Positions 4,885 through 46,334 of a stretch of 64,000 bases of DNA are shown piece by piece; positions within the stretch are counted from its first letter, which is position 1, and every line of letters begins with the position of its first letter. The stretch is from Alphaproteobacteria bacterium (GTDB lineage Bacteria; Pseudomonadota; Alphaproteobacteria; UBA2136; UBA6156). A model generated the notes under the pieces. The model saw only the letters and a program-made list of their open reading frames with translations. It was not told the origin of the DNA and searched no databases. Location of the stretch: assembly GCA_027485835.1 (NCBI GenBank), contig JAIXQG010000002.1:880681-944680 (forward strand), in the 5' to 3' direction. A program made the translations under genes and the position numbers.

Positions 4885-4971
4885 TAACGTAGAATAGTTA
4901 TGGGTAAACTTGGCTTGTGATGGGCGGATTTTTTTGTTGTGGGGGTTGGGGGATTGAGTGAGACTGACGGC

Positions 4972-6072
4972 ATGACAATGCAAAACAGTGGCCGGGTGAA
5001 AGCCCTTGGCATGATGAGTGGGACCAGCCTTGACGGTGTGGACGTATGTTTGGTGGACACTGATGGCGAGCAGGAGGTTGCGGTGCTGGGGCGGTATTAC
5101 CGGCAGTATCCGAGCCGTTTGCGCGAGCGCTTGTTGGAGGTATCACGCGGGGATATTCCGCTCGCCGACGTGTTGCGGTTGGAACGGGACGTGACCGAGC
5201 AGTATGCGCTGGCGCTGCTGGAAAGCAATTTGCTGGAACAGGCTGATGTGGTGGGGTGCCATGGCCAGACGGTGCGTCATATGCCGACCGAAGGGCTGAC
5301 CTGGCAGTTAGGCGACCCGAATTATCTGGCCGAGCGCATTACCGGTGTGAAGCCCGTGCCGGTGGTGATGGATTTCCGGCGGCGTGACATGGCGGCGGGA
5401 GGTGAGGGGGCACCGCTAGCCCCGTTGTTCCATGCGGTGATGCTGGGTAAGCGTGCTAAGGTGGCGTGTTTGCTGAATATCGGTGGCGTGGCGAATGTGA
5501 CGGTGGTGCACCCGGACGGGCGTGTGTTGGCGAGTGACTGCGGCCCAGGCATGGGCATGTTGGATACCTGGATGCAGGAGCAGGCCGGAGCTGAATTTGA
5601 CAAAGACGGTGCGGCGGCACGGCAGGGGATTGTGCAACAAGAATTGGTGGCACGCGCGTTGACTGAGATCGGGTTTTTTAGCCGACCTGTACCGTGCAGT
5701 GCTGATCGGTATGAATTTTACGGGATGTTCGATTGGATGAAAGGCCTGAATGTGGCCGATGGTGCCGCCACGCTGGGCGCACTGACCGTAGCGGGTATTG
5801 ACCGTACCCTGCGCGCGTTCGGCGTGGCGCCGGACGAAGTGGAGGGGCTGTATGTTTCCGGCGGTGGCAGCTACAACCCGGTGGTGATGGAAGGCCTTGC
5901 CGACCATGGTTGGCAGGTGGCCGATAGTACCGCCCTGGGATGGGAGCCTTTGGCCGTGGAAGCGGCGTGCTTTGGATGGCTGGCGGTGCGGCGGTTACGC
6001 GGTTTGCCGACGGCCCAGCCGAGTACGACGCATTGCACCCACCCCACCGTGGGCGGTGTTTTGACGGTATAA
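4972..6072 (+). CDS. anmK: Anhydro-N-acetylmuramic acid kinase
   Basis: GMMSGTSLDGVD motif and overall AnmK length. Confidence 0.85.
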   Translation: MTMQNSGRVKALGMMSGTSLDGVDVCLVDTDGEQEVAVLGRYYRQYPSRLRERLLEVSRGDIPLADVLRLERDVTEQYALALLESNLLEQADVVGCHGQTVRHMPTEGLTWQLGDPNYLAERITGVKPVPVVMDFRRRDMAAGGEGAPLAPLFHAVMLGKRAKVACLLNIGGVANVTVVHPDGRVLASDCGPGMGMLDTWMQEQAGAEFDKDGAAARQGIVQQELVARALTEIGFFSRPVPCSADRYEFYGMFDWMKGLNVADGAATLGALTVAGIDRTLRAFGVAPDEVEGLYVSGGGSYNPVVMEGLADHGWQVADSTALGWEPLAVEAACFGWLAVRRLRGLPTAQPSTTHCTHPTVGGVLTV

Positions 6073-9231: not shown

Positions 9232-9594
9232 TTGAAAATGAAGCTTGAGCCGAAGATGGCGGAGATTGCACCGGACCAGTTTTTTGCGGTGGATGTGCGG
9301 GTGGGGGTTGTGGTGGATGCCAAGCCGTTCCCGGAGGCGCGGAAGCCTGCGTACCAGATTTGGGTGGATTTTGGTGAGGCGTATGGGGTGAAGAAGACCT
9401 CGGCTCAGGTAGCCGTGCATTACACGCCCGAGGGCCTGATAGGGCGCAAGGTGCTGGGTTGGGTGAATGCACCTGCGCGGCAAATTGGCCCTTTTATGAG
9501 CGAGTTTTTGATTTTGGGTGTGCATGACGTTGACGGCGCGGTGTGTTTGCTTCAGGTAGACAGGGACGTACCAACAGGCGGGAGAATGAGTTAA
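9232..9594 (+). CDS. tRNA-binding domain protein (CsaA/EMAP-like)
   Basis: ~115 aa OB-fold-like sequence typical of CsaA/YgjH. Confidence 0.65.
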   Translation: MKMKLEPKMAEIAPDQFFAVDVRVGVVVDAKPFPEARKPAYQIWVDFGEAYGVKKTSAQVAVHYTPEGLIGRKVLGWVNAPARQIGPFMSEFLILGVHDVDGAVCLLQVDRDVPTGGRMS

Positions 9595-10169
9595 TGAGTT
9601 TTGCAGAATTAAAGAAGATGGCCGCGCCTCTGGACGATACGTTTGCAGTGTGGGGCTTTGGTGGCGGTTGGGCGATTGACGGAACCATCGGTAAGGTGAC
9701 GCGTGAGCACCATGATGTGGATATTTTCATTTTACGTGAGGATTTGGCTGAGTGGCGCGAGGTATGGCCGGAGGCGCTCTGGTATAAAATGGTTAATGAC
9801 CGAGAAGTAGAACTTGCTGACGGGGAAGAACCAGATGCGAGTGTACGCACGCTGCATGTCCGCGACGGTGAGGCGTTTTATGAAATTCTGCTGATGGAAA
9901 CCGAGGGCGATAACTGGGTGTACGAGCATGACGCCCGCGTGAAAATGCCGGTGGAAGAGGTGTTTGTGGCCGGTGTGGAGCGACTCTCGTTTGTGAACCC
10001 CGCGATTGCGTTGCTGATTAAGAGCAAACAGTTGCGTGAGAAGGACGTGAAAGATTTTAAGGCGGTGCTGCCGTTTTTGTCGGATTTTGAGCGCCAATGG
10101 CTGTTGCTGGCGTTACAGACCATGTATGGTGAGCACATTTGGATGGATGCATTAAAGGGAGCTAAGTAA
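9594..10169 (+). CDS. Nucleotidyltransferase of the ANT(2'')/Lnu (aminoglycoside/lincosamide nucleotidyltransferase) family
   Basis: WGFGGGWAIDGTIGKVTREHHDVDI matches the AadB-type motif WIGGGWAID..GRVTRKHDDIDL. TAATG overlaps on both sides (csaA upstream, pyrH downstream). Confidence 0.6.
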   Translation: MSFAELKKMAAPLDDTFAVWGFGGGWAIDGTIGKVTREHHDVDIFILREDLAEWREVWPEALWYKMVNDREVELADGEEPDASVRTLHVRDGEAFYEILLMETEGDNWVYEHDARVKMPVEEVFVAGVERLSFVNPAIALLIKSKQLREKDVKDFKAVLPFLSDFERQWLLLALQTMYGEHIWMDALKGAK

Positions 10170-11077: not shown

Positions 11078-12865
11078 ATGGTACGACATTCCTCCGATAA
11101 AAAAGCGAAAACGTCAGTGGACAAGGCGACGCAGAAGCGGACGCAGCGGTTTTTGTGGGAGTTGGTACGGCCTTATAAGTGGCGGCTGCTGGGCGGGAGC
11201 CTGATGCTGGTGGTGAGTGCGGGGGCGATGCTGGCGTTGCCGCAGTATTTGCGGCACATGTTTGATACCGCGCTGCGCACCGGTGATAAGGCGCAGTTGG
11301 GCGTGCTGGCGGGCATGATGTTTGGCACTGTTTTGGTGATGGTGGTCAGTATTTTTGCGCGGACGTGGTTGATTCAGTACAGTTCGACGTCGATTTTGGC
11401 CGAATTGCGGCGCCGCCTTGCGAATACGCTGTTGATGCAGGACGTGCGTTTTTTTGAGAACCGTTCTTCGGGGGAATTGGTCAGCCGGATGGCGTCGGAT
11501 ACGACGTCGGTGCGGGAGTTTTTGCACATGGCGGCGCCGCAGTTGGTGCGGGGGATTTTTCTAGGATTAGGGACCTTGTTGGCGTTGCTTTATACTAGCC
11601 CGAGTTTGACGCTGGTGCTGGTGGTGGCGTGTTTGCCGATTGCGTTGATCGGGCGGTTTTTGGGGACCTCGATCCGTTCTACCGTACGGCAGCAGCAGGA
11701 TAACATGGCTGGGTTTGGTGGGGCTTTGGAAGAGGCCGTGGCTAATATCCGAACCATTTTAGCCTTTAACCAGCAGCCGCGCCTGATGGCGGATATGGAA
11801 GAGCGCACGCAGGATATGCAGCGCGTGGGCAACCGCTTGGCGACGATACGCTCGGGGTTTGTGGCGGTGAACGTAGTGGTCGGTTTTTCGGCACTGATTG
11901 GCGTAGTGTGGCTGGGCGGTGTGCGGGTGATGGAAGGGGCGATGAGCCTTGGCGATATGATGGCATTTTTGCTGTATTTAGCGTTTGCGGCGGATGCGGC
12001 GGGGAATATCACCAATTTTTGGCCGGCGTGGCAGGGGGTTTTAGGATCGACCGAGCGGATTATCGGGATTTTGGACAGCAAGCCGGAGATTGCCGAGCCG
12101 AAGAAGGCTAAGGCTTTGCCGGTGGCGAAGGGTGGGCGTGGGATTGTTTTGAAGAACGTGCGGTATGTTTACCCCGCACGGCCTGATACCGCGGCGCTGG
12201 ATGGCTTGGAGATGGCGATTGCGGCGGGGCAGAACGTGGCGGTGGTGGGGCCGAGTGGCGCTGGGAAATCGACGTTGTTTAGATTGTTTTTACGTTTGGA
12301 TGATGTGACCGAGGGTAAGTTGCTGTTGGACGGCGTGGACGTGCGTGAGGCCGGTTTGGCGGATTTGCGCCGGCAGTTTGCGCTGGTGGCGCAGGAAAGC
12401 CCGCTCTTCAGCGGTACGGTGGCGTTTAATGTGCGCTTTGCCAAGCCGGATGCCACCGATGATGAAGTGTGGGCTGCCTTGAAGGCGGCCCATGCTGATG
12501 GGTTTGTGAAGGCCTTGCCGAAGGGTTTAAAGACGCCGGTGGGTGAGAAGGGCGTGCAGCTAAGTGGCGGGCAACGTCAGCGGATTGCGATTGCGCGGGC
12601 GGTGCTGGCCGATGCACCGGTGCTGTTGCTGGATGAGGCCACCGCGCACTTGGATAGCGAGAGCGAGGCGGCGATTCAGGCCGCGCTAACGACCGTGGGC
12701 AAGGGGCGGACGGTGGTGACGATTGCGCATAGATTATCCACTGTGAAAAATGCCGATGTGATTTTTGTGATGGATAAGGGACGTGTGGTGGCTTCGGGGA
12801 CGCATGGCGAGTTGATGAAGAGTAGTTCGCTTTATAAGGCGTTGGCGGCTATTCAGCTTGGTTAA
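11078..12865 (+). CDS. ABC transporter, fused permease/ATPase (MsbA-like exporter)
   Basis: Six-TM N-terminal domain. Walker A GPSGAGKST, signature LSGGQRQR, Walker B LLLDEAT. Confidence 0.85.
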   Translation: MVRHSSDKKAKTSVDKATQKRTQRFLWELVRPYKWRLLGGSLMLVVSAGAMLALPQYLRHMFDTALRTGDKAQLGVLAGMMFGTVLVMVVSIFARTWLIQYSSTSILAELRRRLANTLLMQDVRFFENRSSGELVSRMASDTTSVREFLHMAAPQLVRGIFLGLGTLLALLYTSPSLTLVLVVACLPIALIGRFLGTSIRSTVRQQQDNMAGFGGALEEAVANIRTILAFNQQPRLMADMEERTQDMQRVGNRLATIRSGFVAVNVVVGFSALIGVVWLGGVRVMEGAMSLGDMMAFLLYLAFAADAAGNITNFWPAWQGVLGSTERIIGILDSKPEIAEPKKAKALPVAKGGRGIVLKNVRYVYPARPDTAALDGLEMAIAAGQNVAVVGPSGAGKSTLFRLFLRLDDVTEGKLLLDGVDVREAGLADLRRQFALVAQESPLFSGTVAFNVRFAKPDATDDEVWAALKAAHADGFVKALPKGLKTPVGEKGVQLSGGQRQRIAIARAVLADAPVLLLDEATAHLDSESEAAIQAALTTVGKGRTVVTIAHRLSTVKNADVIFVMDKGRVVASGTHGELMKSSSLYKALAAIQLG

Positions 12866-14207: not shown

Positions 14208-14461
14208 GGACCTAACATAGCGGGTTGGGGGGTTGATGGCTAGGCCATCGCATCCCATAATAGCACCATGAACATAAGGCTATCTGGTAAAAGACTGATA
14301 CGACCTGAACGGGCTGAAAATGCGTCTGGATTCTGCTTTGCTTGGCGTCAAATAGTCCCCGCTATTAGCCGCCAATCCCAACACAACCAGTCGCCTTTTC
14401 ATCTCCGTCATCTCGCACCAGCCTTTCACCAGATAACCTTTCCTTACTGGTGTTGACTATG

Positions 14462-15115
14462 CGGGAGGTGCCTGACATGAACGGCGCTTCCCCTCCAAGC
14501 GTACCTGCGCACGTGTTTAACAGCCACCGCACGCTGCTGTTGAATGCCGATTATTCTCCCTTTAGTTACCCGCTGGAGCCGCTGAACGCGGAAGATACGA
14601 TTAAGGGCCTGTGTTTGGGCCGTTATGTGGTGGTGGAGTGGAGCGAGACGTTTGCGCATAGCCCGAGTTTGGAAATGCGGTTACCGAGCGTGGTGGCGGT
14701 GAAGGAGTATGTGACCGATGCGGGGCTGTATGGGGTGCCTGCGTGTAATATCGGGAACCTTTACGTGCGGGATAAGGGCCTGTGCCAGTACACGGGGCGG
14801 GAGCTGAAGCTGCATGGCGCAGGGACGCATACGCTGGCGACGATGGACCATGTGATCCCCAAAAGCCGGGGCGGGTTGCTGACGTGGGAGAATACCGTGT
14901 TGGCCAGCCAATACGCCAACAATGCCAAGGGCGATAAAAGCCTGAAGGATTTTGGGATGCCGCTGCTAAACACGCCGTGGGTGCCGCGGGGGGGGGATTT
15001 GCTGTACTTGTGGCTGACCGAAGAGCGTTTGGCCAGTTTGCCGCAAACGTGGCATGCGTTTTTGCAGGTGGTGCCGACACCTGCGCTGCGGCGGGTTTTG
15101 GAGGCGGCGGCGTAA
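14462..15115 (+). CDS. HNH endonuclease-domain protein
   Basis: DHVIPKSRGG..TWEN ... NNAKGDKSL HNH motif. Native-like codon usage. Confidence 0.7.
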   Translation, partial: REVPDMNGASPPSVPAHVFNSHRTLLLNADYSPFSYPLEPLNAEDTIKGLCLGRYVVVEWSETFAHSPSLEMRLPSVVAVKEYVTDAGLYGVPACNIGNLYVRDKGLCQYTGRELKLHGAGTHTLATMDHVIPKSRGGLLTWENTVLASQYANNAKGDKSLKDFGMPLLNTPWVPRGGDLLYLWLTEERLASLPQTWHAFLQVVPTPALRRVLEAAA

Positions 15116-34276: not shown

Positions 34277-34403
34277 GGGTAGGATTCTCCGATTTTGTTT
34301 TGTTGTGTTGTTATGGTGACTGATTATAGCATGGAGTTGGAACTTTTCTGACGGGTGTCAGGAATGATATTGTATACTATAGTGGAATCGGCTATATAGG
34401 GTT

Positions 34404-35834
34404 ATGAAAATGAATCTTTCTTTGCGCGCGTTGCTGGGTTTCTCGGTTGTGGCTGTCTTATGTTTGGCCAATGAGGCGCGTGCGGCGGACGGCGGTGAAA
34501 CCACGACGATGGCGGATGGTTCGGAGCAGTTGAACAAAGCGGCGGAGCAGGCCACGGAGTGCCAAAAAGCCATTGCTGAGGTAAATGAAGCCTTAGAAAA
34601 AGGGCGATATGAACGTGCGGAAACCTTGAAGAAGAAGAAGGATGCGATTTGTGAGCAGACGTATTCCGCTGAGAAAGAGAATTTGGCGAAAGAGAAGCAA
34701 GTAGAAGCTGAAAAAACGGAAGAGACTCTTCCTGCCGCTGCCAACCCTATGGGGGCTGATGCCCGTAATCAAGACGCTTACAATCCGCCTAAAAATATTA
34801 TGATTAATGGCCAGGAGATGAGCTGGGCGAAGTATGAAAGTTTCCGCCAGGTTGGTGAGAGTTATGGATTTAGCGATCAGCAAATTGCCGGTATTGCGGG
34901 GCGCTTACAGGTAGAAAGTAATGCGTTTAGCCCTACTAAAGATGGCTCTACCGCGGTAGGTGATGGAGGTACGTCGTTTGGTCGTGCGCAATGGCACAAA
35001 GAGCGTGGTACCGCGATGGCTAACTACGTAAACCAGATGCGTGCGGAACGTGCGGATGCGAATAATACGAGCTATAACCAAGCGAACTTGTCGCATAACG
35101 GTAAAACGGCTAGTGGTTTGAAGTTTTCTGCGTTTGACCAAAATAACTATATTTTCAAAGAACTTCCGAGCCAGATGTCGAAGTCGAATTACGCCGCGCT
35201 GAAGAGCACGACGTCGGCGGAAGAAGCGGCGCGTATCTTTACGAAGTATTATGAGCGTCCGGCTAACCAAGCCGGGCAAGCCTGGGGGCTTGCCGGTGGT
35301 AATGCTACGGCGGCTTTTGCGACGGGTTTAGCCAATACCAATGGAAATACGGTAGTGCCGGATATGGGGCAGTGGGGCTCGCGCCAGCTGGCAACTTATA
35401 ATAGTACCGGTGGTACGGGTTCGGGCGGTAGCGGGAGCGGTACTGGTGGTACGTCTGTTAATGATTTGATCTCTCAATTGTTGGGAGGTAATGGATCTTC
35501 CCTGCTAGGTGGGGGGAGTGGGAATTCTATTGCCGATGCGTTGAGCGCGTTGTTTGGTGGAGACGATTCCTCGGATTCGGATGATAGCTCGGACAGTGAT
35601 AGCGAGGATTCCGAGAGCCGTACGTTGGTTTCGACTGTGACGACGATTAACATCGACGGCAGTATCAAGACGGTCAAAACGTACTCGGATGGTTTGGTAC
35701 TGACGAGCCAGACCGCCAGTAACAGTGAAATTGCTGCGACGAATATCCAGAACTTCTGTGGTGTGGATAGCACCACCTCGACGGATGCGTTCATGTTGAT
35801 GATTGACGCGTGTGTCGCGGCATTTACGAGCTAG
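34404..35834 (+). CDS. Secreted modular peptidoglycan hydrolase. Signal peptide, conserved coiled-coil N-module, lysozyme-like domain (phage tail lysozyme-like motif), Gly/Ser linker, conserved C-module.
   Basis: GIAGRLQVESNAFSPTKDGSTAVGDGGTSFGRAQWH motif. N- and C-termini shared with the next gene. Low GC3. Confidence 0.7.
   Translation: MKMNLSLRALLGFSVVAVLCLANEARAADGGETTTMADGSEQLNKAAEQATECQKAIAEVNEALEKGRYERAETLKKKKDAICEQTYSAEKENLAKEKQVEAEKTEETLPAAANPMGADARNQDAYNPPKNIMINGQEMSWAKYESFRQVGESYGFSDQQIAGIAGRLQVESNAFSPTKDGSTAVGDGGTSFGRAQWHKERGTAMANYVNQMRAERADANNTSYNQANLSHNGKTASGLKFSAFDQNNYIFKELPSQMSKSNYAALKSTTSAEEAARIFTKYYERPANQAGQAWGLAGGNATAAFATGLANTNGNTVVPDMGQWGSRQLATYNSTGGTGSGGSGSGTGGTSVNDLISQLLGGNGSSLLGGGSGNSIADALSALFGGDDSSDSDDSSDSDSEDSESRTLVSTVTTINIDGSIKTVKTYSDGLVLTSQTASNSEIAATNIQNFCGVDSTTSTDAFMLMIDACVAAFTS
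34523..34684 (+). repeat. ~160-bp direct repeat (copy 1), >90% identical to 35997-36157. Encodes the shared N-module.
   Basis: Direct nucleotide comparison. Confidence 0.85.
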
Positions 35835-35852
35835 ATGGAGAAGGACAACGTC

Positions 35853-37298
35853 ATGATGTACCGGATAGGCAAGAATGTACAAGTTGGCATGCTGGCAATT
35901 GGGTTTGCGGCGTTGTTGAGTGTTGCGCATGCGGCACTTGACCCTGATGTAAGCGATTTTGATGCGAGCACGACTGCTGCTGCTGCAGATGGCGTGGAAC
36001 AGTTGAACAAAGCGGCGGAACAGGCCACACAGTGCCAGAAAGCCATAGCTGAAGTGAATGAAGCCTTAGAAAAAGGACGATATGAACGCGCGGAAACCTT
36101 GAAGAAGAAGAAGGATGCGATTTGTGAGCAGACGTATTCCGCTGAGAAAGAGAATTTACCTAAGCCTGAGACTAAGGAAGAGACTGTTCCGGCCGCTACG
36201 AACCCTATGGGTGCCGATGCGCGGGATAGTGAAAATTACTATCAGGAAGGTTTTGCCGGGCGTCAGCGCAATACCAAGGAAATGACCTACGTGACCTTTG
36301 AGGAAGCTAAAGATAAGAACCTGCCGTATGGTTGGACCGAAAGTACGCGTACCAGCGATTTTGGACCGCGTACATCTGTGCCGACTGCGAATGGAGGATT
36401 TTCTTCGAGTGACCACAAAGGTGAGGATTACTCGATTGGTGGGGGATTGACCGAAGGGACGGATATTTACTCCAACCAGAACGGTAAAGTTGTTTATGCG
36501 GGTGAAAAAGGTGCTTATGGCAAGACAGTTATTGTTGAGGACGACAATGGTAACCAGACCCAATATAGCCACTTGAGCGATATTAACGTGAATGTGGGAG
36601 ACAAGGTGACAACCGGTTACCAGATTGGTGATGCCGGTGCGACCGGGAACTCTACTGCTGCCCACCTGCACTATGGTGAGATTGCGAATGGCAGCTACGT
36701 GAACCCTGCCACCAGCAGTGGGATTAAGAATTACGATGTCGCTTCGGTCAATGCGTGGGCCGATAACTCGGTGGCTTCCGGCGGGTATTCGGCAACGGCT
36801 GGTAGCGGCGGCTCGACCGGAAGTGGTACGGGTGGTTCGGGTGTCAGCGCCAACAGTGGCTTGGGGAGCGATTTGATAAGCTCGCTGACTGGTAGCGGGT
36901 CGTCCAGTGGGTTTGAGTCTTTGATCCAGCAATTGTTCGGCGGTGGTTCTTCGGGTGGTAGCGGCGGTAGTTCTGAGACGGCATCTTCGGGTACCTCCGG
37001 CAGCTCGTCTGACGGAACGGCGGCGTCGGAGTTAGTGGTGAAAACGGTGACGGAAGTGGCCGCCAATGGTGATACCACCCGCACGACCACCTACGCTGAC
37101 GGACGCACAGAAACGCTGACGGTGAAGGCCACGGCAAGTACCAGCGAACAGTTGAGCGCCTTGCTGGTGTCGGTATTGGGTGAGGAAAAGGCTGTGAGTG
37201 TTATGGAATCGATTCAGGCACTGTGCGGCAGTAACCTTTCTACCAGCGCGGATGCGGACATGTTGAAGGTGAGCCAGTGCCAGTCGTCTTCGGTATAG
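35853..37298 (+). CDS. Secreted modular peptidoglycan hydrolase. Signal peptide, conserved N-module, M23 (LytM) metallopeptidase domain, Gly/Ser linker, conserved C-module.
   Basis: M23 motifs HKGEDYSIGG ... GKVVYAGEKGAYGKTVIVEDDNGNQTQYSHL ... AAHLHYGE. RBS GGAGAAGGA upstream of ATG 35853. Confidence 0.75.
   Translation: MMYRIGKNVQVGMLAIGFAALLSVAHAALDPDVSDFDASTTAAAADGVEQLNKAAEQATQCQKAIAEVNEALEKGRYERAETLKKKKDAICEQTYSAEKENLPKPETKEETVPAATNPMGADARDSENYYQEGFAGRQRNTKEMTYVTFEEAKDKNLPYGWTESTRTSDFGPRTSVPTANGGFSSSDHKGEDYSIGGGLTEGTDIYSNQNGKVVYAGEKGAYGKTVIVEDDNGNQTQYSHLSDINVNVGDKVTTGYQIGDAGATGNSTAAHLHYGEIANGSYVNPATSSGIKNYDVASVNAWADNSVASGGYSATAGSGGSTGSGTGGSGVSANSGLGSDLISSLTGSGSSSGFESLIQQLFGGGSSGGSGGSSETASSGTSGSSSDGTAASELVVKTVTEVAANGDTTRTTTYADGRTETLTVKATASTSEQLSALLVSVLGEEKAVSVMESIQALCGSNLSTSADADMLKVSQCQSSSV
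35997..36157 (+). repeat. ~160-bp direct repeat (copy 2)
   Basis: Direct nucleotide comparison with 34523-34684. Confidence 0.85.
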
Positions 37299-37359
37299 CA
37301 TTGTGATGAGTTGAGAAGGGTGGCGTGGCCACCCTTCTTGTTAGGTGCTAGGATAGCCC

Positions 37360-37590
37360 ATGATGGAAGCCGGAACCCTTTTACAGGTGCGTGTGACGCC
37401 GAAGGCGGCGGCCGATAGGCTGGTTGTGGAGGAGGGGAATTATCGGATTTATGTGACCGCCGTGCCCGAGGATGGCAAGGCCAATAAAGCGGTGATAGCC
37501 CTGCTGGCGAAGCACCTGGGAATTGCCAAAAGCAAGCTGGAATTGGTGAGGGGCGAGACGGCGCGGGACAAGGTATTTCGGATTTTATGA
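37360..37590 (+). CDS. YggU/DUF167 family protein
   Basis: ...YRIYVTAVPEDGKANKAVIALLAKHLGIAKSKLELVRGETARDKVFRI. Confidence 0.7.
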   Translation: MMEAGTLLQVRVTPKAAADRLVVEEGNYRIYVTAVPEDGKANKAVIALLAKHLGIAKSKLELVRGETARDKVFRIL

Positions 37591-37677
37591 AGTATTCCGC
37601 AATTATTTGGTTGTGGGTGCTAGTATTTTAGGCAGATTGCCCTTATGTAGGGGGTAGTTAAATAGAGGATCTCCGAC

Positions 37678-39084
37678 ATGGTAGAGCGTAAAGGGCCTGC
37701 AAAGGGCAAATTTGGTGGCGGTTTTTCGGGTCCGCGTGCAGGCGGGGCCGGTGGCGCCCGTGGTGGTTACAAGGCTGGTGGCAGCCGTGAAGGTGGGTTT
37801 GACCGTAAACCCCGCGAAGGTGGTTACGACCGCAAGCCGCGCGAAGGTGGTGAGCGTAGCTACGCACCGCGCGCCGATGGTGAGCGCAAGCCTTATGTAA
37901 AGCGTGAAGGCGGTTTTGACCGCAAGCCGCGTGAAGGTGGTTACGAGCGCAAAAGCTTTGGTGATGGTGAGCGTAAGCCTTACGTGAAGCGCGAAGGCAG
38001 CAGCTACGAGCGTAAACCCCGTGAAGGCGGCGAGCGTAGCTATGCGCCGCGTGGCGATGGTGAGCGTCGCCCTTATACCCCGCGTGAAGGCGGTTACGAC
38101 CGTAAACCGCGTGAGGGTGGTTACGAGCGCAAGAGCTTTGGCGATGGCGAGCGTAAGCCTTACGTGAAGCGTGAGGGCGGTTTTGACCGTAAGCCGCGTG
38201 AAGGTGGTTATGAGCGCAAGAGCTTTGGCGACGGCGAGCGCAAGCCGTATGTGAAGCGTGAGGGTGGGTTTGACCGTGCTCCGCGTGAAAACCGCGGTGA
38301 AGGCAAGCCGGCGAATTTTTCGGAAAAGCGGACCATCAAGCGCGACCGCAGCACCCCTGACGAAAAGCTGCTGATGGGTGGCGACGGCTGGTTGGTAGGT
38401 TACCATGCCGTGCTGGCCGCCCTGACCGCCGGCCGCCGCAAGGTGCGCAAGGTATGGCTGTTGAGCGAAGCCCAAGGCGAACTGGCGACCCTTTTGGAAA
38501 AGCACAGTGATTGGGATGTTGAGATTAAGTCTAAGCCCGAATTTGAGCGTGAGTTTGGCGATGTGGTTCACCAAGGTGTGGCCGCGCTGGTGGGTAACCT
38601 GCCGCAGCCGAGCCTGCCCGAGTTGCTGAGCAGCAAGCCGAAGCTGATTATCGCGCTGGACCAGATTACCGACCCGCACAACTTGGGTGCCATTGTACGC
38701 AGTGCGGCTGCCTTTGGCGCTGCTGGCGTGCTGGTGACCGAGCACCGCGCAGCTGGCCTGAACCTGACCGCTGCCAAGGTGGCTGCCGGTGCCATGGAAG
38801 TGGTACCCGTGGTGGAAGTGACCAACCTTGTGCAAAGCCTGACCATGATGCAGGAAGCCGGTTACACCGTGCTGGGTATGGCCGGTGAAGCCGAGACCGA
38901 GATTGGTGACGTGAACGCCAAGGGCCCCGTGTGCTTGGTGATGGGCAGTGAAGGCGAAGGCCTGCGCCGCCTGACCCGCGAAACCTGCGACACGCTGGTG
39001 AAGATTCAGATTTCTGCCGCCATGGAGAGTTTGAATGTATCTGTCGCTACTGGCGTCGCGTTGTCGATTCTGACCCGCAAGTAA
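37678..39084 (+). CDS. rlmB: 23S rRNA (guanosine-2'-O)-methyltransferase RlmB with a long N-terminal Arg/Gly/Glu-rich repeat extension
   Basis: C-terminal SpoU methylase domain (VGYHAV ... LDQITDPHNLGAIVRSA ... LVMGSEGEGL). The N-terminus has ~5 imperfect 29-aa repeats. Confidence 0.85.
   Translation: MVERKGPAKGKFGGGFSGPRAGGAGGARGGYKAGGSREGGFDRKPREGGYDRKPREGGERSYAPRADGERKPYVKREGGFDRKPREGGYERKSFGDGERKPYVKREGSSYERKPREGGERSYAPRGDGERRPYTPREGGYDRKPREGGYERKSFGDGERKPYVKREGGFDRKPREGGYERKSFGDGERKPYVKREGGFDRAPRENRGEGKPANFSEKRTIKRDRSTPDEKLLMGGDGWLVGYHAVLAALTAGRRKVRKVWLLSEAQGELATLLEKHSDWDVEIKSKPEFEREFGDVVHQGVAALVGNLPQPSLPELLSSKPKLIIALDQITDPHNLGAIVRSAAAFGAAGVLVTEHRAAGLNLTAAKVAAGAMEVVPVVEVTNLVQSLTMMQEAGYTVLGMAGEAETEIGDVNAKGPVCLVMGSEGEGLRRLTRETCDTLVKIQISAAMESLNVSVATGVALSILTRK
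37770..38290 (+). repeat. Tandem ~87-bp coding repeats (EGGYERKSFGDGERKPYVKREGGFDRKPR units)
   Basis: Visible periodicity in the protein and the DNA. Confidence 0.8.
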
Positions 39085-39243
39085 GCTTTATAAGCGAGGA
39101 AACGGCGCCCTGTGGGGCGCTGTTTTTGGCTTGGGGTTGTTTTTTGGGGAGGTGGGGCCTATCTGATAGATAGGCACATTCTTTAATTGACCTTTTTGGC
39201 GCCCGTGATGGGAGGATGTGCAGTGGCTTCATGGCTAGGAGAT

Positions 39244-39654
39244 ATGAACATGAAGAGTGCTTTGATGACGGCTGTGGCCGTATTTTTTGTTGCTGGTTCG
39301 GTTTCGGTATTCGCGCAGGATGCGACGGTTTCGGCCTGCGAGTTCGAAGGGGCGAAAGGCTCTTCGAACTATGAATGCTTGGCGGCGGCACAGGTGACTT
39401 TCCAGAAACTGGCGGCTGATGCTGCAGAGGGTGATACGACCAAGGCTTCCGACGTCTACGTCGAGCTTCTCGAGAAGACCAAAAGCTTCCAAACCCTGGT
39501 GGCGTCGCTTGATACGGCGGAACTCGGCAAGGGCCAGCCACTCCGGCAGAATGTCGAGGCGGCTAACAAGGTTGTTGCCAAGGCGATCTCGGCCGTTGAT
39601 AAGCTGACGACGGCGGCCGTAAAGGCGCATGCGATTCAGCTGCCGAAGAAATAG
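39244..39654 (+). CDS. Small secreted protein, hypothetical
   Basis: Signal peptide MKSALMTAVAVFFVAGSVSVFAQ. Confidence 0.5.
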   Translation: MNMKSALMTAVAVFFVAGSVSVFAQDATVSACEFEGAKGSSNYECLAAAQVTFQKLAADAAEGDTTKASDVYVELLEKTKSFQTLVASLDTAELGKGQPLRQNVEAANKVVAKAISAVDKLTTAAVKAHAIQLPKK

Positions 39655-39712: not shown

Positions 39713-39833
39713 GTGAGGGCTTGTTTTGCGGTGGATTGGGCCTATCTGGTTAGGGAAAACGCATCTTTAGTCCTTTTGGGCACCAATGAAGGGTGATGCG
39801 TGGCTATGTTCCGAAAAAAATGGAGATTCGGGA

Positions 39834-40439
39834 ATGTTTACTAAGTTTTTTATGGTTGCTGGTTTGGTGTTCGCGGCGTCTTCCTCGGCATTTGCGGGGA
39901 TTGGCACGTTCGCCGATGTCGGCGGCCTTTCTTCGAGGGACGCCGATTTGTCGAGCACTTACAATGCGCCGATGCCGAATAACGGCAATCCTCACTCGGA
40001 GGAATCCAGCGATGACATGGCTCTCGATGCGGATGACATTTGCTCTCTCAATGACGAGGGTACTCGCTTCACCTGCAGGCGTGAGTTCGTACCTGAGGGG
40101 GCTCCGAAGTTTTACGGAGAGTACGGTGGGACTTATAGCTGTTCGTTCAAGATCGAGCTCGACTTCTTCTCTTGCTGGCGGGAGGGGTTCCGCCTGATGG
40201 CCGACATCGAGCGTTTGCTTGAGACCGGCAAGGCATCGGGTAAGCTCGATGCCATCATCGCGCTCGACCTGATGGACGAGAACGCGCTCGCGTTCATGGC
40301 CAAGCGCTTCGACGGCGAGGCCGAGGAGAAGCGCATTATGTTCTTCAAGACTTACTTCACGCTGAAGGACAAAGTTAATGGTACGCGGGTGTATCTGGAT
40401 TTCAATGAAATGCAGAGGGCGTTCGGTCTTTATAATTAA
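39834..40439 (+). CDS. Secreted protein, hypothetical (Cys-containing)
   Basis: Signal peptide MFTKFFMVAGLVFAASSSAFA. RBS GGAG 8 nt upstream. Confidence 0.5.
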   Translation: MFTKFFMVAGLVFAASSSAFAGIGTFADVGGLSSRDADLSSTYNAPMPNNGNPHSEESSDDMALDADDICSLNDEGTRFTCRREFVPEGAPKFYGEYGGTYSCSFKIELDFFSCWREGFRLMADIERLLETGKASGKLDAIIALDLMDENALAFMAKRFDGEAEEKRIMFFKTYFTLKDKVNGTRVYLDFNEMQRAFGLYN

Positions 40440-45370: not shown

Positions 45371-45595
45371 GCTGTTAAGGGCTTATTAAACGTTTGTGTT
45401 TTTTAAATTAACCGTTTGGTTAGGCTTGGTTTCGCTTGGTTTTTGTGTGGCGTATGTGCCTCAGGGGTGTGCAGTCTTGGGGGCTTTTTTTACGTTTTTT
45501 GGGAACCTGCACCCCCAAAATGTATTACAGTGATGAAGTAGCGCCTGCCTAGGCGGTGCCTCTGACACGAACAACCTATTAATAGGAATAAGATA

Positions 45596-46147
45596 ATGAT
45601 CCGTACTTCTGTAATGACCCTGGCTTTGGCCGGTGCTGTAATCGTAACCGGTAACGCCGAAGGCTGGAGCCGTGATGGCCTGTACGCTGGTGTTAAGGCC
45701 GGTGCCACCCAAGCCCAAAACCAATCCTTCAACACCGAATACGACGCTGGTTTCACCGGTGGTGCTTTCGTTGGTAAGAAAATGGGTAACTACCGCGCTG
45801 AGCTGGAAGGTATCTATGAAGAATCCGACGTTGACGGTGCTGACCTGGCTACCAAGTTCTCTGGTGCCATGGTTAACGGTTACTACGACTTCAAGAACGC
45901 CAGCCGCTTCACCCCGTACGTAGGTGCCGGTATCGGTTACGGTAAGGTACGTTACAGCAGCGACGTTGCTGGTACCGACAGCTCCAGCGAAGACGCTTTG
46001 GCCTACCAAGGTGTAGCCGGTGTTGGTTACGAACTGAACCCGTGCTGGACCCTGACCGGTGAATACCGTTACCTGGGTACCACTGAAGCTGGCGACACCC
46101 GTTACCAGAGCCATAGTGCATTGGCCGGTGTTCGCTACTCCTTCTAA
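45596..46147 (+). CDS. Outer-membrane beta-barrel protein (OmpA-like/Omp25-like small barrel)
   Basis: Signal peptide. Alternating amphipathic strands. C-terminal ...VRYSF. Confidence 0.7.
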   Translation: MIRTSVMTLALAGAVIVTGNAEGWSRDGLYAGVKAGATQAQNQSFNTEYDAGFTGGAFVGKKMGNYRAELEGIYEESDVDGADLATKFSGAMVNGYYDFKNASRFTPYVGAGIGYGKVRYSSDVAGTDSSSEDALAYQGVAGVGYELNPCWTLTGEYRYLGTTEAGDTRYQSHSALAGVRYSF

Positions 46148-46156
46148 CTTGGGGTA

Positions 46157-46192
46157 AGCAAGAAAAAGGAGCCGGTTGGCTCCTTTTTCTTG
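46157..46192. terminator. Hairpin terminator gcaagaaaaaggagccggttggctcctttttcttgc
   Basis: Perfect extended palindrome. Confidence 0.7.
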
Positions 46193-46198
46193 CCGAAG

Positions 46199-46334
46199 GG
46201 CGCGGGCTAAAAGCTCCCCCTGCGACGCTTCGCCAAAGCTCGTGTACTTCTTGTACACGTCGCTTCGTCTCATCCTCTCAGGATGAAGCTTTATAGCCTC
46301 ACGTGTGGGGCCTCATCAAACGTCGCTTCGCGCC
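46199..46334. repeat. MITE/REP-like intergenic repeat, copy C
   Basis: ggcgcgggctaaaagctccccctgcgac ... tttatagcctcacgtgtgggg ... ttcgcgccgg. Confidence 0.55.

Follow-up and report, generated by a model that had tools for sequence, protein, structure and literature searches.

What are two neighbouring genes for, if they place almost the same exported N-terminal module ahead of two different peptidoglycan-cutting domains? This question is raised by a locus within a 64,000-nucleotide stretch of DNA (hereafter the window) of an alphaproteobacterium (GenBank assembly GCA_027485835.1, contig JAIXQG010000002.1, positions 880,681 to 944,680). The two genes, designated g1 and g2, had been described in an initial annotation, prepared from the sequence alone, as a tandem pair of secreted peptidoglycan hydrolases. 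Modular secreted muralytic enzymes are already known; what is new in this case is the presence of two unannotated modules and an unusual evolutionary regime of the locus. The coordinates of all features of the pair are collected in Table 1.

The shared modules of g1 and g2

A comparison of g1 and g2 confirmed that they are adjacent genes of like architecture with a repeat-encoded N-terminal module (N-module). The direct repeat (34512-34684 versus 35985-36157) comprises 173 nt with 92% identity, which is far above chance, and a second repeated stretch (34708-34785 versus 36166-36243; 78 nt) shows 74% identity. The N-terminal 156 aa of the two proteins share 55% identity (E = 2e-43), and the 57-aa core of the predicted helical hairpin 95%. 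The two Cys residues of this hairpin (C53 and C83) are invariant across 8 module-bearing sequences. Since both lie about equidistant from the hairpin turn, a disulfide bond stapling the two helices is plausible. Both proteins also carry predicted Sec-type signal peptides with an A-x-A cleavage site.

The claim of related, Cys-containing C-terminal modules (C-modules) was upheld as well: the C-terminal parts of g1 and g2, which are partly of low complexity, are 34% identical (E = 2e-20) and have an invariant C-x17-C arrangement in common. The Gly/Ser/Asp-rich linker is not featureless, as the motifs LISQLLGG and LSQLFGGG are kept in 10 of 10 aligned family members, and the structural model of g1 places short helices at residues 353-359 and 375-384 of this region. 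A further motif, MGADAR...Y, whose residues (M116-P129) are invariant in alignment A1, is otherwise confined to lysozyme-type g1 genes, yet it is present in g2 of the window, which suggests a past conversion tract from g1 into g2.

Neither the N-module nor the C-module matched any Pfam, NCBIfam or PHROG model, no PDB relative of them was detected by sequence, and no further copy of either was found in the window. A weak phmmer match between the C-module and a subunit of type 1 fimbriae (5n2b, E = 0.019) was judged to be due to chance because the Cys residues are not aligned, and the YD/Rhs-like appearance of its beta-hairpin (matches P0229 and P0231) reflects only a short, compositionally simple motif. 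AlphaFold2 models of g1 and of P0002, a family protein from a related genome, were built from alignments of 8-10 sequences and reached mean predicted local distance difference test (pLDDT) scores of 43 and 42. Only the N-terminal hairpin and the C-module are moderately confident in these models: the helices of the N-module were placed at residues 39-65 and 69-84 (pLDDT 57-73 in g1, about 81 in P0002), and the lysozyme domain of g1 has pLDDT 35-58. A Foldseek comparison of both models with the PDB gave no match at E <= 0.001.

An additional feature was observed at the mature N-termini of P0001, P0003, P0004, P0009, P0225, P0227 and g2 of locus L001 (GCA_005768725.1, the genome closest to the window). 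They contain an acidic motif, A-G-[MV]-[LV]-D-[DE]-E-[NSY], which directly follows the predicted cleavage site in most members outside the window's type and is absent from g1 and g2 of the window. It could act as a sorting or processing signal.

The catalytic domains

The catalytic domain of g1 had been described as phage-tail-lysozyme-like, correctly so: residues 153-290 match Pfam PF18013 (E = 2e-14, 54.4 bits; gathering cutoff 28.2). Two g1 orthologues pass the same cutoff (P0003 with 39.2 bits, P0004 with 30.1 bits), and alignment A1 shows no variation at E171-S172 or at E284/P286-A287-N288. The profile of the g1 family also matches the structure of phi29 gp13 (3csr, E = 7e-4), with RLQVES aligned to NMQSES (E171 on chain position 45) and ERPAN to ERPAN. 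Glu45 is presumably the catalytic Glu of gp13. Between the window and L001, the nonsynonymous divergence (dN) of the lysozyme domain is 0.116 with saturated synonymous divergence (dS), i.e. dN/dS of about 0.04, and the domain is therefore under purifying selection.

The second gene encodes a canonical M23 domain (Peptidase_M23, PF01551; E = 1.8e-23, 83 bits, cutoff 28.7; profile positions 3-96 of 96), as initially annotated. All four M23-type members of the family retain the HxxxD motif (H194-KGE-D198), H246 and the HLH motif (H277-L-H279) without change. The best matches among solved structures are active M23 enzymes (PDB, to E = 2.6e-14), and g2 also matches the catalytic domains of lysostaphin and zoocin A. 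In NCBIfam, the best named M23 matches are the housekeeping DD-endopeptidases Pgp3, ShyA and MepM (E = 1e-14 to 1e-17), with scores 5- to 12-fold under every equivalog cutoff. Judging from their conserved residues, both enzymes look active. All three catalytic domain types of the family, including the one described below, are closest to phage virion-associated lysins.

Exchange of catalytic domains between related genomes

The initial annotation had proposed that the catalytic domains are exchangeable, and this was borne out by the related loci. Relatives whose neighbouring MaoC protein is 93-96% identical to that of the window hold an SLT-like domain at the orthologous gene-1 position, in place of Phage_lysozyme2. 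For example, in locus L010 (MaoC 96% identical) the gene-1 slot encodes P0002, which has a like signal peptide, N-module type and C-module, and another, Cys-rich middle domain. P0006, P0225 and a partial gene of L005 share this kind of middle domain, which is marked by the motifs YRENQG...CGIGQY.

The assignment of the third domain is based on matches below the thresholds, namely SLT_4 in the distant member P0227 (E = 2.7e-4, 21.1 bits; cutoff 27), a PHROG "transglycosylase" family (E = 4.3e-4) and a tail-fibre family (E = 3.8e-5), and P0225 has a weak precomputed match to PF18013. No Pfam match was obtained for this domain in P0002 and P0006, no PDB profile matched it, and a tblastn search of phage records returned nothing. 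The idea that it is a relative of the lysozyme2 domain was dropped, as the hhalign comparison was not significant. We consider it, with moderate confidence, to be an SLT-like glycan-cleaving domain. A second swap was found in locus L019, whose gene 1 is of the lysozyme2 type, yet its linker and C-module are 67% identical over 187 aa to those of the SLT-like P0227 of L015. Replacement between the lysozyme2 and SLT-like domains at the g1 position has thus taken place at least twice independently, in two sub-lineages.

Gene 2 varies in a different manner. Its M23 subtypes are only 39-46% identical and have differing pre-domain regions, and the gene is absent from L016, L003 and L004, which argues against an essential housekeeping role of g2. 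The common theme of these loci, as predicted from their domains, is a single enzyme for the glycan strands, usually accompanied by a single one for the cross-links. In L016 (2414-2577, compared with 37299-37677 of the window), g2 and the adjoining YggU/DUF167 gene are missing jointly; YggU lies directly downstream of g2 wherever this flank is visible (the window, L001, L005, L006 and L007). In L003 and L004, which are more distant and have no g2, the lysozyme gene is directly followed by a gene (11667-12131 and 11621-12094, respectively) for a signal-peptide protein of 154-157 aa. The two proteins, which are 38% identical to each other and unrelated to proteins of the window, are candidates for an inhibitor or a partner.

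A conserved chromosomal slot with divergent alleles

The window represents ordinary core chromosome, with genes for UvrC, AnmK, PRPP synthetase, EF-Ts, RuvABC, DnaB, FabD/FabF, MltG/YceG, XerD and AccA. No phage, plasmid, secretion-system or transposon genes were found in it. At the borders of the locus there is no integrase, transposase or tRNA gene, and no direct repeat flanks it; the XerD gene encodes the conserved recombinase of the chromosome. The earlier statement that neither a cognate immunity gene nor a secretion apparatus is evident nearby was confirmed, and mobile-element genes are likewise not found in the vicinity.

The gene order of the closest genome, GCA_005768725.1, is that of the window: SBP-CNNM-...-XerD-AccA-GNAT-MaoC, the lysozyme gene, the M23 gene, YggU and the SpoU methylase gene, followed further on by L28-PAP2-PMT_2. 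Gene 1 adjoins the divergently transcribed MaoC gene in every other locus with this flank visible (L003, L004, L010, L015 and L016), and gene 2 precedes YggU and SpoU in those with the downstream flank visible (L005, L006 and L007). The slot, located after MaoC and before YggU/SpoU, is conserved in about 10 independent loci and is filled in all relatives in which it can be seen.

The content of this slot diverges sharply from its surroundings. Proteins encoded in the flanks are 78-98% identical between the window and L001 (e.g. AccA 95%, MaoC 95%, L28 98%), compared with 60% for g1 and about 40% for g2. The flanks have dS of 0.26-1.3, whereas g1 and g2 are saturated at synonymous sites (proportion of synonymous differences, pS, 0.73-0.74). 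The alleles of g1 and g2 must therefore be older than the host genomes, as expected under cassette exchange by recombination. DNA homology of the window to L015 and L016 is lost within about 10 nt of the g1 start. L010 is 86% identical to the window at the DNA level from MaoC to the end of the N-module, beyond which homology is gone, and homology to L001 ends past the lysozyme domain. The slot was thereby shown to be a recombination hotspot with old, divergent and functional alleles.

The AT-rich codon usage noticed initially is real: the G+C content at third codon positions (GC3) is 0.545 in g1 and 0.572 in g2, compared with 0.61-0.82 in 24 of the 27 other measured genes of the window. The form of the conclusion drawn from it, an acquired insertion, was wrong, since what moves are the alleles at an ancestral slot. 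The same slot is occupied in all relatives, and the L001 alleles have near-native GC3 (0.65 and 0.68), so low GC3 is a property of the window alleles and not of the family. The pair is a resident of the chromosome and not a recent insertion, and the atypical composition of the window alleles would fit allele exchange at a resident locus.

Other envelope-related genes of the neighbourhood are also variable. About 8 kb downstream of the pair there is a hypervariable outer-membrane protein (OMP) gene (45461-46273, minus strand; GC3 0.568), the only one of the 27 other measured genes with a comparably low GC3. Its product is 18-39% identical to the L001 counterpart, which carries OMP_b-brl; the neighbouring FtsJ and RNase H are 92-95% identical. 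Between the SpoU methylase gene and rpmB (L28) there is another slot, with hypervariable genes for small Cys-containing proteins with signal peptides (39187-39654 and 39786-40439), neither of which matches Pfam. The 155-aa protein encoded there shares 33-35% identity with the corresponding proteins of L001 and L006 (dN/dS 0.59), and the 217-aa open reading frame (ORF) has no counterpart in L001. The window also contains both AnmK (4939-6072) and MltG/YceG (57084-58223); therefore, ordinary peptidoglycan turnover and recycling exist besides the hypervariable pair.

Matching of the N-modules within genomes

The N-modules of g1 and g2 resemble each other within a genome (protein identity of 95% in the window, 95% in L006 and 88% in L001) far more than they resemble those of other genomes (only 51-56% when the window is compared with the L001/L006 type). 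The two copies of one genome differ at many synonymous and few nonsynonymous sites (pS 0.33-0.68, proportion of nonsynonymous differences, pN, 0.02-0.08; pN/pS about 0.1, from about 35 synonymous sites), the values for the window being pS = 0.35 and pN = 0.03. Between genomes pN reaches 0.33. High pS combined with low pN within genomes indicates that the match is kept by selection on the protein, and not just by recent gene conversion. In L015 both genes start with an identical mature sequence, and the g1 and g2 C-modules of L019 are nearly identical over roughly their final 30 residues.

Distribution of the family

The modules are exceedingly rare. Word-indexed searches of 5.8 billion clusters revealed about ten module-bearing relatives, and an exhaustive hidden Markov model search with the C-module profile against 1.84 billion representatives gave 12 matches, about 8 of which are real family members. 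Since they occur in only about 10 of 1.84-5.8 billion protein clusters, the modules do not represent a widespread housekeeping domain, in agreement with the initial proposal. Among GTDB species representatives the family occurs in one only, the VAFM01 metagenome-assembled genome. A metagenome scan with the full-length M23-type proteins returned one already known contig and generic M23 genes. Searches of viral contigs, phage records and plasmids yielded only generic domain similarity and no family members, and a literature search found no paper that mentions the pair. The nearest relatives of the RuvB protein of the window come from metagenome-assembled genomes of uncultured Alphaproteobacteria (identity <= 80%).

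Two observations concern the public records. The Logan contig of run SRR16126897 (L009), which represents the strain of the window, stops 79 codons into g1, inside the repeated N-module, and the NCBI model of the M23 gene of GCA_005768725.1 (P0010, 485 aa) starts too late and leaves out the signal peptide and the N-module. Such contig breaks and late starts hide the family from routine annotation.

Comparison with known systems

The closest parallel in domain content is gp13 of phage phi29 ("morphogenesis protein 1", PDB 3CSQ/3CSR), a cell-wall-degrading enzyme of the tail tip, which combines a Phage_lysozyme2-type N-domain, the founding structure of PF18013, with an M23/LytM endopeptidase. 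The best annotated phage matches are gp13 orthologues of phi29-like phages. However, gp13 is a single chain in the virion without a signal peptide, whereas the activities are here divided between two chromosomal genes whose products are probably Sec-exported; moreover, gp13 has no counterpart of the private N- and C-modules, and the identity of the lysozyme domains is only about 30%.

A similar combination is known from secreted enzymes. BLF3872 of Limosilactobacillus fermentum, a class III bacteriolysin, contains PF18013 and PF01551 with long disordered regions (PMC10044573). Like lysostaphin and zoocin A, it belongs to the class III bacteriocins, i.e. secreted cell-wall hydrolases used on other bacteria. 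These have Gram-positive producers, are single polypeptides with SH3b-like targeting, and their producers are self-protected by wall modification. The system described here has a Gram-negative producer, two genes and novel modules, and an antibacterial role can only be hypothesised. By analogy, the pair may best be read as a split version of the phi29 gp13/class III bacteriolysin design.

With polymorphic toxins and modular bacteriocins (colicins, pyocins, and pesticin with its muramidase domain) the pair shares a constant frame in which enzymatic domains are exchanged, a deep diversity of alleles at a single locus, and recombination where modules adjoin. The helical hairpin and the Gly/Ser-rich motif region are reminiscent of the receptor-binding and unstructured translocation regions of colicins. 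In those systems, however, the toxin domain is C-terminal behind a trafficking region, whereas here the variable domain lies in the middle, between the N- and C-modules; colicins and pesticin lack Sec signal peptides, which g1 and g2 have; and no immunity gene, lysis gene, orphan cassettes or secretion-system domain are present at g1-g2. In the position of an immunity gene, g2 is followed by a terminator and then by the gene for the cytoplasmic YggU/DUF167 protein. Candidates for immunity were the small secreted ORF 39187-39654 after SpoU and the ORFs downstream of g1 in L003 and L004. They represent unrelated families and do not vary together with the type of N-module, and were therefore rejected as consistent partners.

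Housekeeping M23 enzymes (MepM, ShyA, Pgp3) and LytM regulators (EnvC, NlpD, DipM) are likewise periplasmic Gram-negative proteins with an M23 domain. In contrast to EnvC, NlpD and DipM, g2 has an intact active site; its locus is hypervariable, and the gene itself is dispensable in some relatives.

What the pair may be used for

We propose that g1 and g2 encode two co-targeted muralytic enzymes that are private to their lineage and exchange cassettes, and that their most likely use is an attack on foreign cell walls, as a bacteriolysin-like or a predatory/epibiotic weapon; we hold this explanation as a whole at slightly under even probability. Both enzymes would be exported by Sec. The shared modules may send them to one partner or site, where they would cut the same peptidoglycan cooperatively, one enzyme acting on the glycan strands and the other on the peptide cross-links. 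The conserved N- and C-terminal frames could double as homology arms for exchange of the catalytic cassette, and, if the pair is a weapon, its variable modules would set the specificity for target or partner. That the N-module is a delivery module and the proteins are antibacterial effectors, as first suggested, is retained as a hypothesis.

The use against foreign walls, which we infer from the deep allelic diversity, the domain swaps, the presence or absence of gene 2 and the kinship of the catalytic domains with phage tail lysins, is the weakest step of this explanation. The presence of genes for ordinary peptidoglycan turnover elsewhere in the window also speaks for it, and several points weigh against it. 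No immunity-like gene is consistently linked across the loci and no secretion system is encoded in the window, and the proposal does not account for the route out of the producer's periplasm or for the sparing of its own wall. Exogenous peptidoglycan hydrolases do not normally cross the Gram-negative outer membrane. The fixed position among housekeeping genes would also suit a lineage-specific autolysin. The N-modules of L010 are mismatched (49% aa identity), so matching is not obligatory, and the number of synonymous sites behind the N-module figures is small. The structural models are poor, the module folds resting on secondary-structure prediction only, and the organism has uncultured relatives only, so that its lifestyle cannot be read from taxonomy.

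A bolder version, which we regard as speculative and rather doubtful, sees in the pair a hitherto undescribed type of Gram-negative muralytic weapon composed of two co-evolving exported enzymes. Their frame of disulfide-stapled N-terminal hairpin and C-module would be aimed at the same receptor or carrier of the target cell, and their glycan- and peptide-cleaving warheads would be swapped between strains. Such a system would be the counterpart of polymorphic toxins and colicin-type bacteriocins, encoded on the chromosome, lacking immunity and derived from phage tail-lysin domains, and possibly a tool with which an epibiotic or predatory alphaproteobacterium breaches the wall of its prey.

The chief alternative, which we judge rather unlikely but worth serious weight, is that the genes encode lineage-specific autolysins, which serve to remodel the wall of the cell that makes them, be it in daughter-cell separation, growth or turnover. 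The modules would then localise or restrain the enzymes in the periplasm, and hypervariability would reflect relaxed constraint or pressure of phages or hosts on envelope-exposed proteins. Such a role is consistent with the syntenic position fixed among core genes in all relatives, with Sec-only signal peptides and no immunity gene or secretion system found nearby, and with housekeeping DD-endopeptidases as the best named matches of g2; nearby envelope proteins are also hypervariable (35% identity for the 155-aa protein, 18-39% for the OMP), and AnmK implies recycling of anhydro-muropeptides. It is harder to reconcile with synonymous saturation within an otherwise moderately diverged background, with replacement of the catalytic domain between genomes with 93-96% identical MaoC, with the presence/absence variation of g2, and with N-modules that are matched within genomes and divergent between them. 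To our knowledge, these four features are not typical of housekeeping hydrolases. In addition, every NCBIfam score is far under the equivalog cutoff, and all three catalytic domains are nearest to virion-associated lysins, which act from outside.

This last resemblance, to phage tail lysin and tape-measure domains, could also mean that the enzymes make space for a machine that spans the envelope, such as a flagellum, pilus or secretion system, or are what is left of a virion lysin of a phage or tailocin after domestication, the modules docking them onto the machine. One family, phrog_11037, has both domains in one protein, and one docking module on two different enzymes fits recruitment by a single structure. 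Machine-associated hydrolases are, however, usually encoded within the gene cluster of their machine, and phage, tailocin, flagellar, pilus and secretion genes are absent from the window and from the 10-kb flanks of the relatives; as the viral contigs, phage records and plasmids searched also gave no family member, similarity being confined to the generic domains, we consider this explanation improbable. Still less credit can be given to a recently acquired mobile island with a polymorphic toxin or bacteriocin pair and its cognate immunity gene: the low GC3 of the window alleles and the modular architecture with exchangeable catalytic domains pointed to it, but it is largely refuted by synteny, since all relatives have an occupied slot at this very position. 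The signs of mobility sought at the borders are all lacking, the L001 alleles are near-native in GC3, no consistently linked small gene qualifies as immunity, and the variable domain is not C-terminal. Least probable, with hardly any weight left, are non-catalytic LytM regulators like EnvC, NlpD and DipM, which activate amidases by means of a coiled coil and a degenerate M23 domain. The N-terminal helical hairpin ahead of the M23 domain and weak NCBIfam matches to DipM and EnvC recall such proteins, but for g2 the idea is refuted by the intact active site, in which all zinc and catalytic residues are invariant. The scores are far below the cutoffs (EnvC 24.3 versus 270; DipM 54.5 versus 740 and 44 versus 900), g2 contains no LysM, OapA or long coiled-coil domains, its hairpin comprises about 45 residues and not a coiled coil of about 200, and g1 has the same module on a lysozyme domain. 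The doubt raised in the initial annotation, that the shared modules might prove to be a housekeeping domain such as an EnvC/DipM-type coiled coil, can thus be set aside.

Expression signals and other features of the window

For g2, an ATG at 35853 (the start of the 481-aa NCBI protein) is the likelier start, since it is preceded by a ribosome-binding site, GGAGAAGGA, placed directly past the stop codon of g1. This site and the hairpin after g2 indicate that g1 and g2 form a two-gene operon. The hairpin is GC-rich and was not called by the consensus scanner; an identical one lies downstream of the lone hydrolase gene of L016. The promoter candidate upstream of g1 is a weak match, no better than expected for shuffled sequences. 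The intergenic DNA between MaoC and g1 shows 81-87% identity in L010, L015 and L016 as far as the g1 start.

Table 1. Features of the g1-g2 locus (positions in the window)
Feature	Position	Strand	Remarks
g1, putative exported modular glycan-cleaving enzyme	34404..35834	+	476 aa; ORF and Pfam PF18013; orthologues P0001, P0003, P0004
g1 predicted Sec-type signal peptide (MKMNLSLRALLGFSVVAVLCLANEARA|AD)	34404..34484	+	basic n-region, hydrophobic core, A-x-A site; read from the sequence
g1 N-module, predicted two-Cys (C53, C83) helix-turn-helix hairpin	34509..34703	+	contains repeat copy 34512-34684
MGADAR(N/D)Q.AYNPP motif	34749..34790	+	ahead of the lysozyme domain; copy also in g2 via the second repeat
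g1 Phage_lysozyme2 domain (phi29 gp13 N-domain type)	34791..35303	+	E171 in RLQVES and ERPAN motif conserved
g1 Gly/Ser/Asp-rich region	35364..35615	+	two conserved short amphipathic motifs, VNDLISQLLGG and ADALSALFGG; alignment A2
g1 C-module (kind A)	35616..35831	+	predicted three beta-strands and two helices; invariant C452, C470
g2, putative exported modular M23 metalloendopeptidase	35835..37298	+	487 aa from 35835
g2 N-module	35982..36182	+	contains repeat copy 35985-36157; 95% aa identical to the g1 N-module
g2 Peptidase_M23 domain	36345..36716	+	zinc/catalytic set H194, D198, H246, H277, H279 intact
g2 C-module (kind B)	37032..37295	+	VKTVTEVAANGDTTRTTTYADGR beta-part and C-x17-C helical end
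Sigma-70-like promoter candidate GTGTCA-17-TATAGT	34355..34383	+	divergent MaoC/g1 intergenic region; consensus scan
Terminator-like hairpin GAAGGGTGG-cgtgg-CCACCCTTC, then TTGTT	37315..37342	+	downstream of g2; read from the sequence

The SpoU/RlmB-type methylase gene beyond YggU (37678-39084) has an N-terminal extension of tandem 87-nt (29-aa) Arg/Gly/Glu-rich repeats, GGFDRKPREGGYERKSFGDGERKPYVKRE (37785-38289, about 4.7 copies). These repeats cross-align with those of relatives at shifted registers, which suggests copy-number variation. An HNH endonuclease ORF and an aminoglycoside-2''-adenylyltransferase-like ORF (14450-15115 and 9543-10169, respectively) are located among the core genes. 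No Rfam RNA families were matched in the window. GC skew is positive in each 1-kb bin of positions 1-64000 (0.06-0.37, mostly 0.15-0.30), a strand asymmetry that is unusually high; the cumulative skew rises monotonically, and therefore the whole window lies on one replichore.

Implications

Secreted peptidoglycan hydrolases are weapons of bacteria and candidate enzyme antibiotics. At the locus described here, three different wall-cutting domains are carried in one constant scaffold and exchanged at a single site, and the matched, unannotated modules point to an undescribed mechanism of targeting or partner recognition in the envelope of Gram-negative bacteria. Should the enzymes attack other bacteria, their locus would tell how an uncultured alphaproteobacterial lineage with an apparently small genome lives, and would offer a natural chassis for lysin engineering. 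If they act on the wall of their own producer, they would be unusual autolysins under diversifying, cassette-type evolution.

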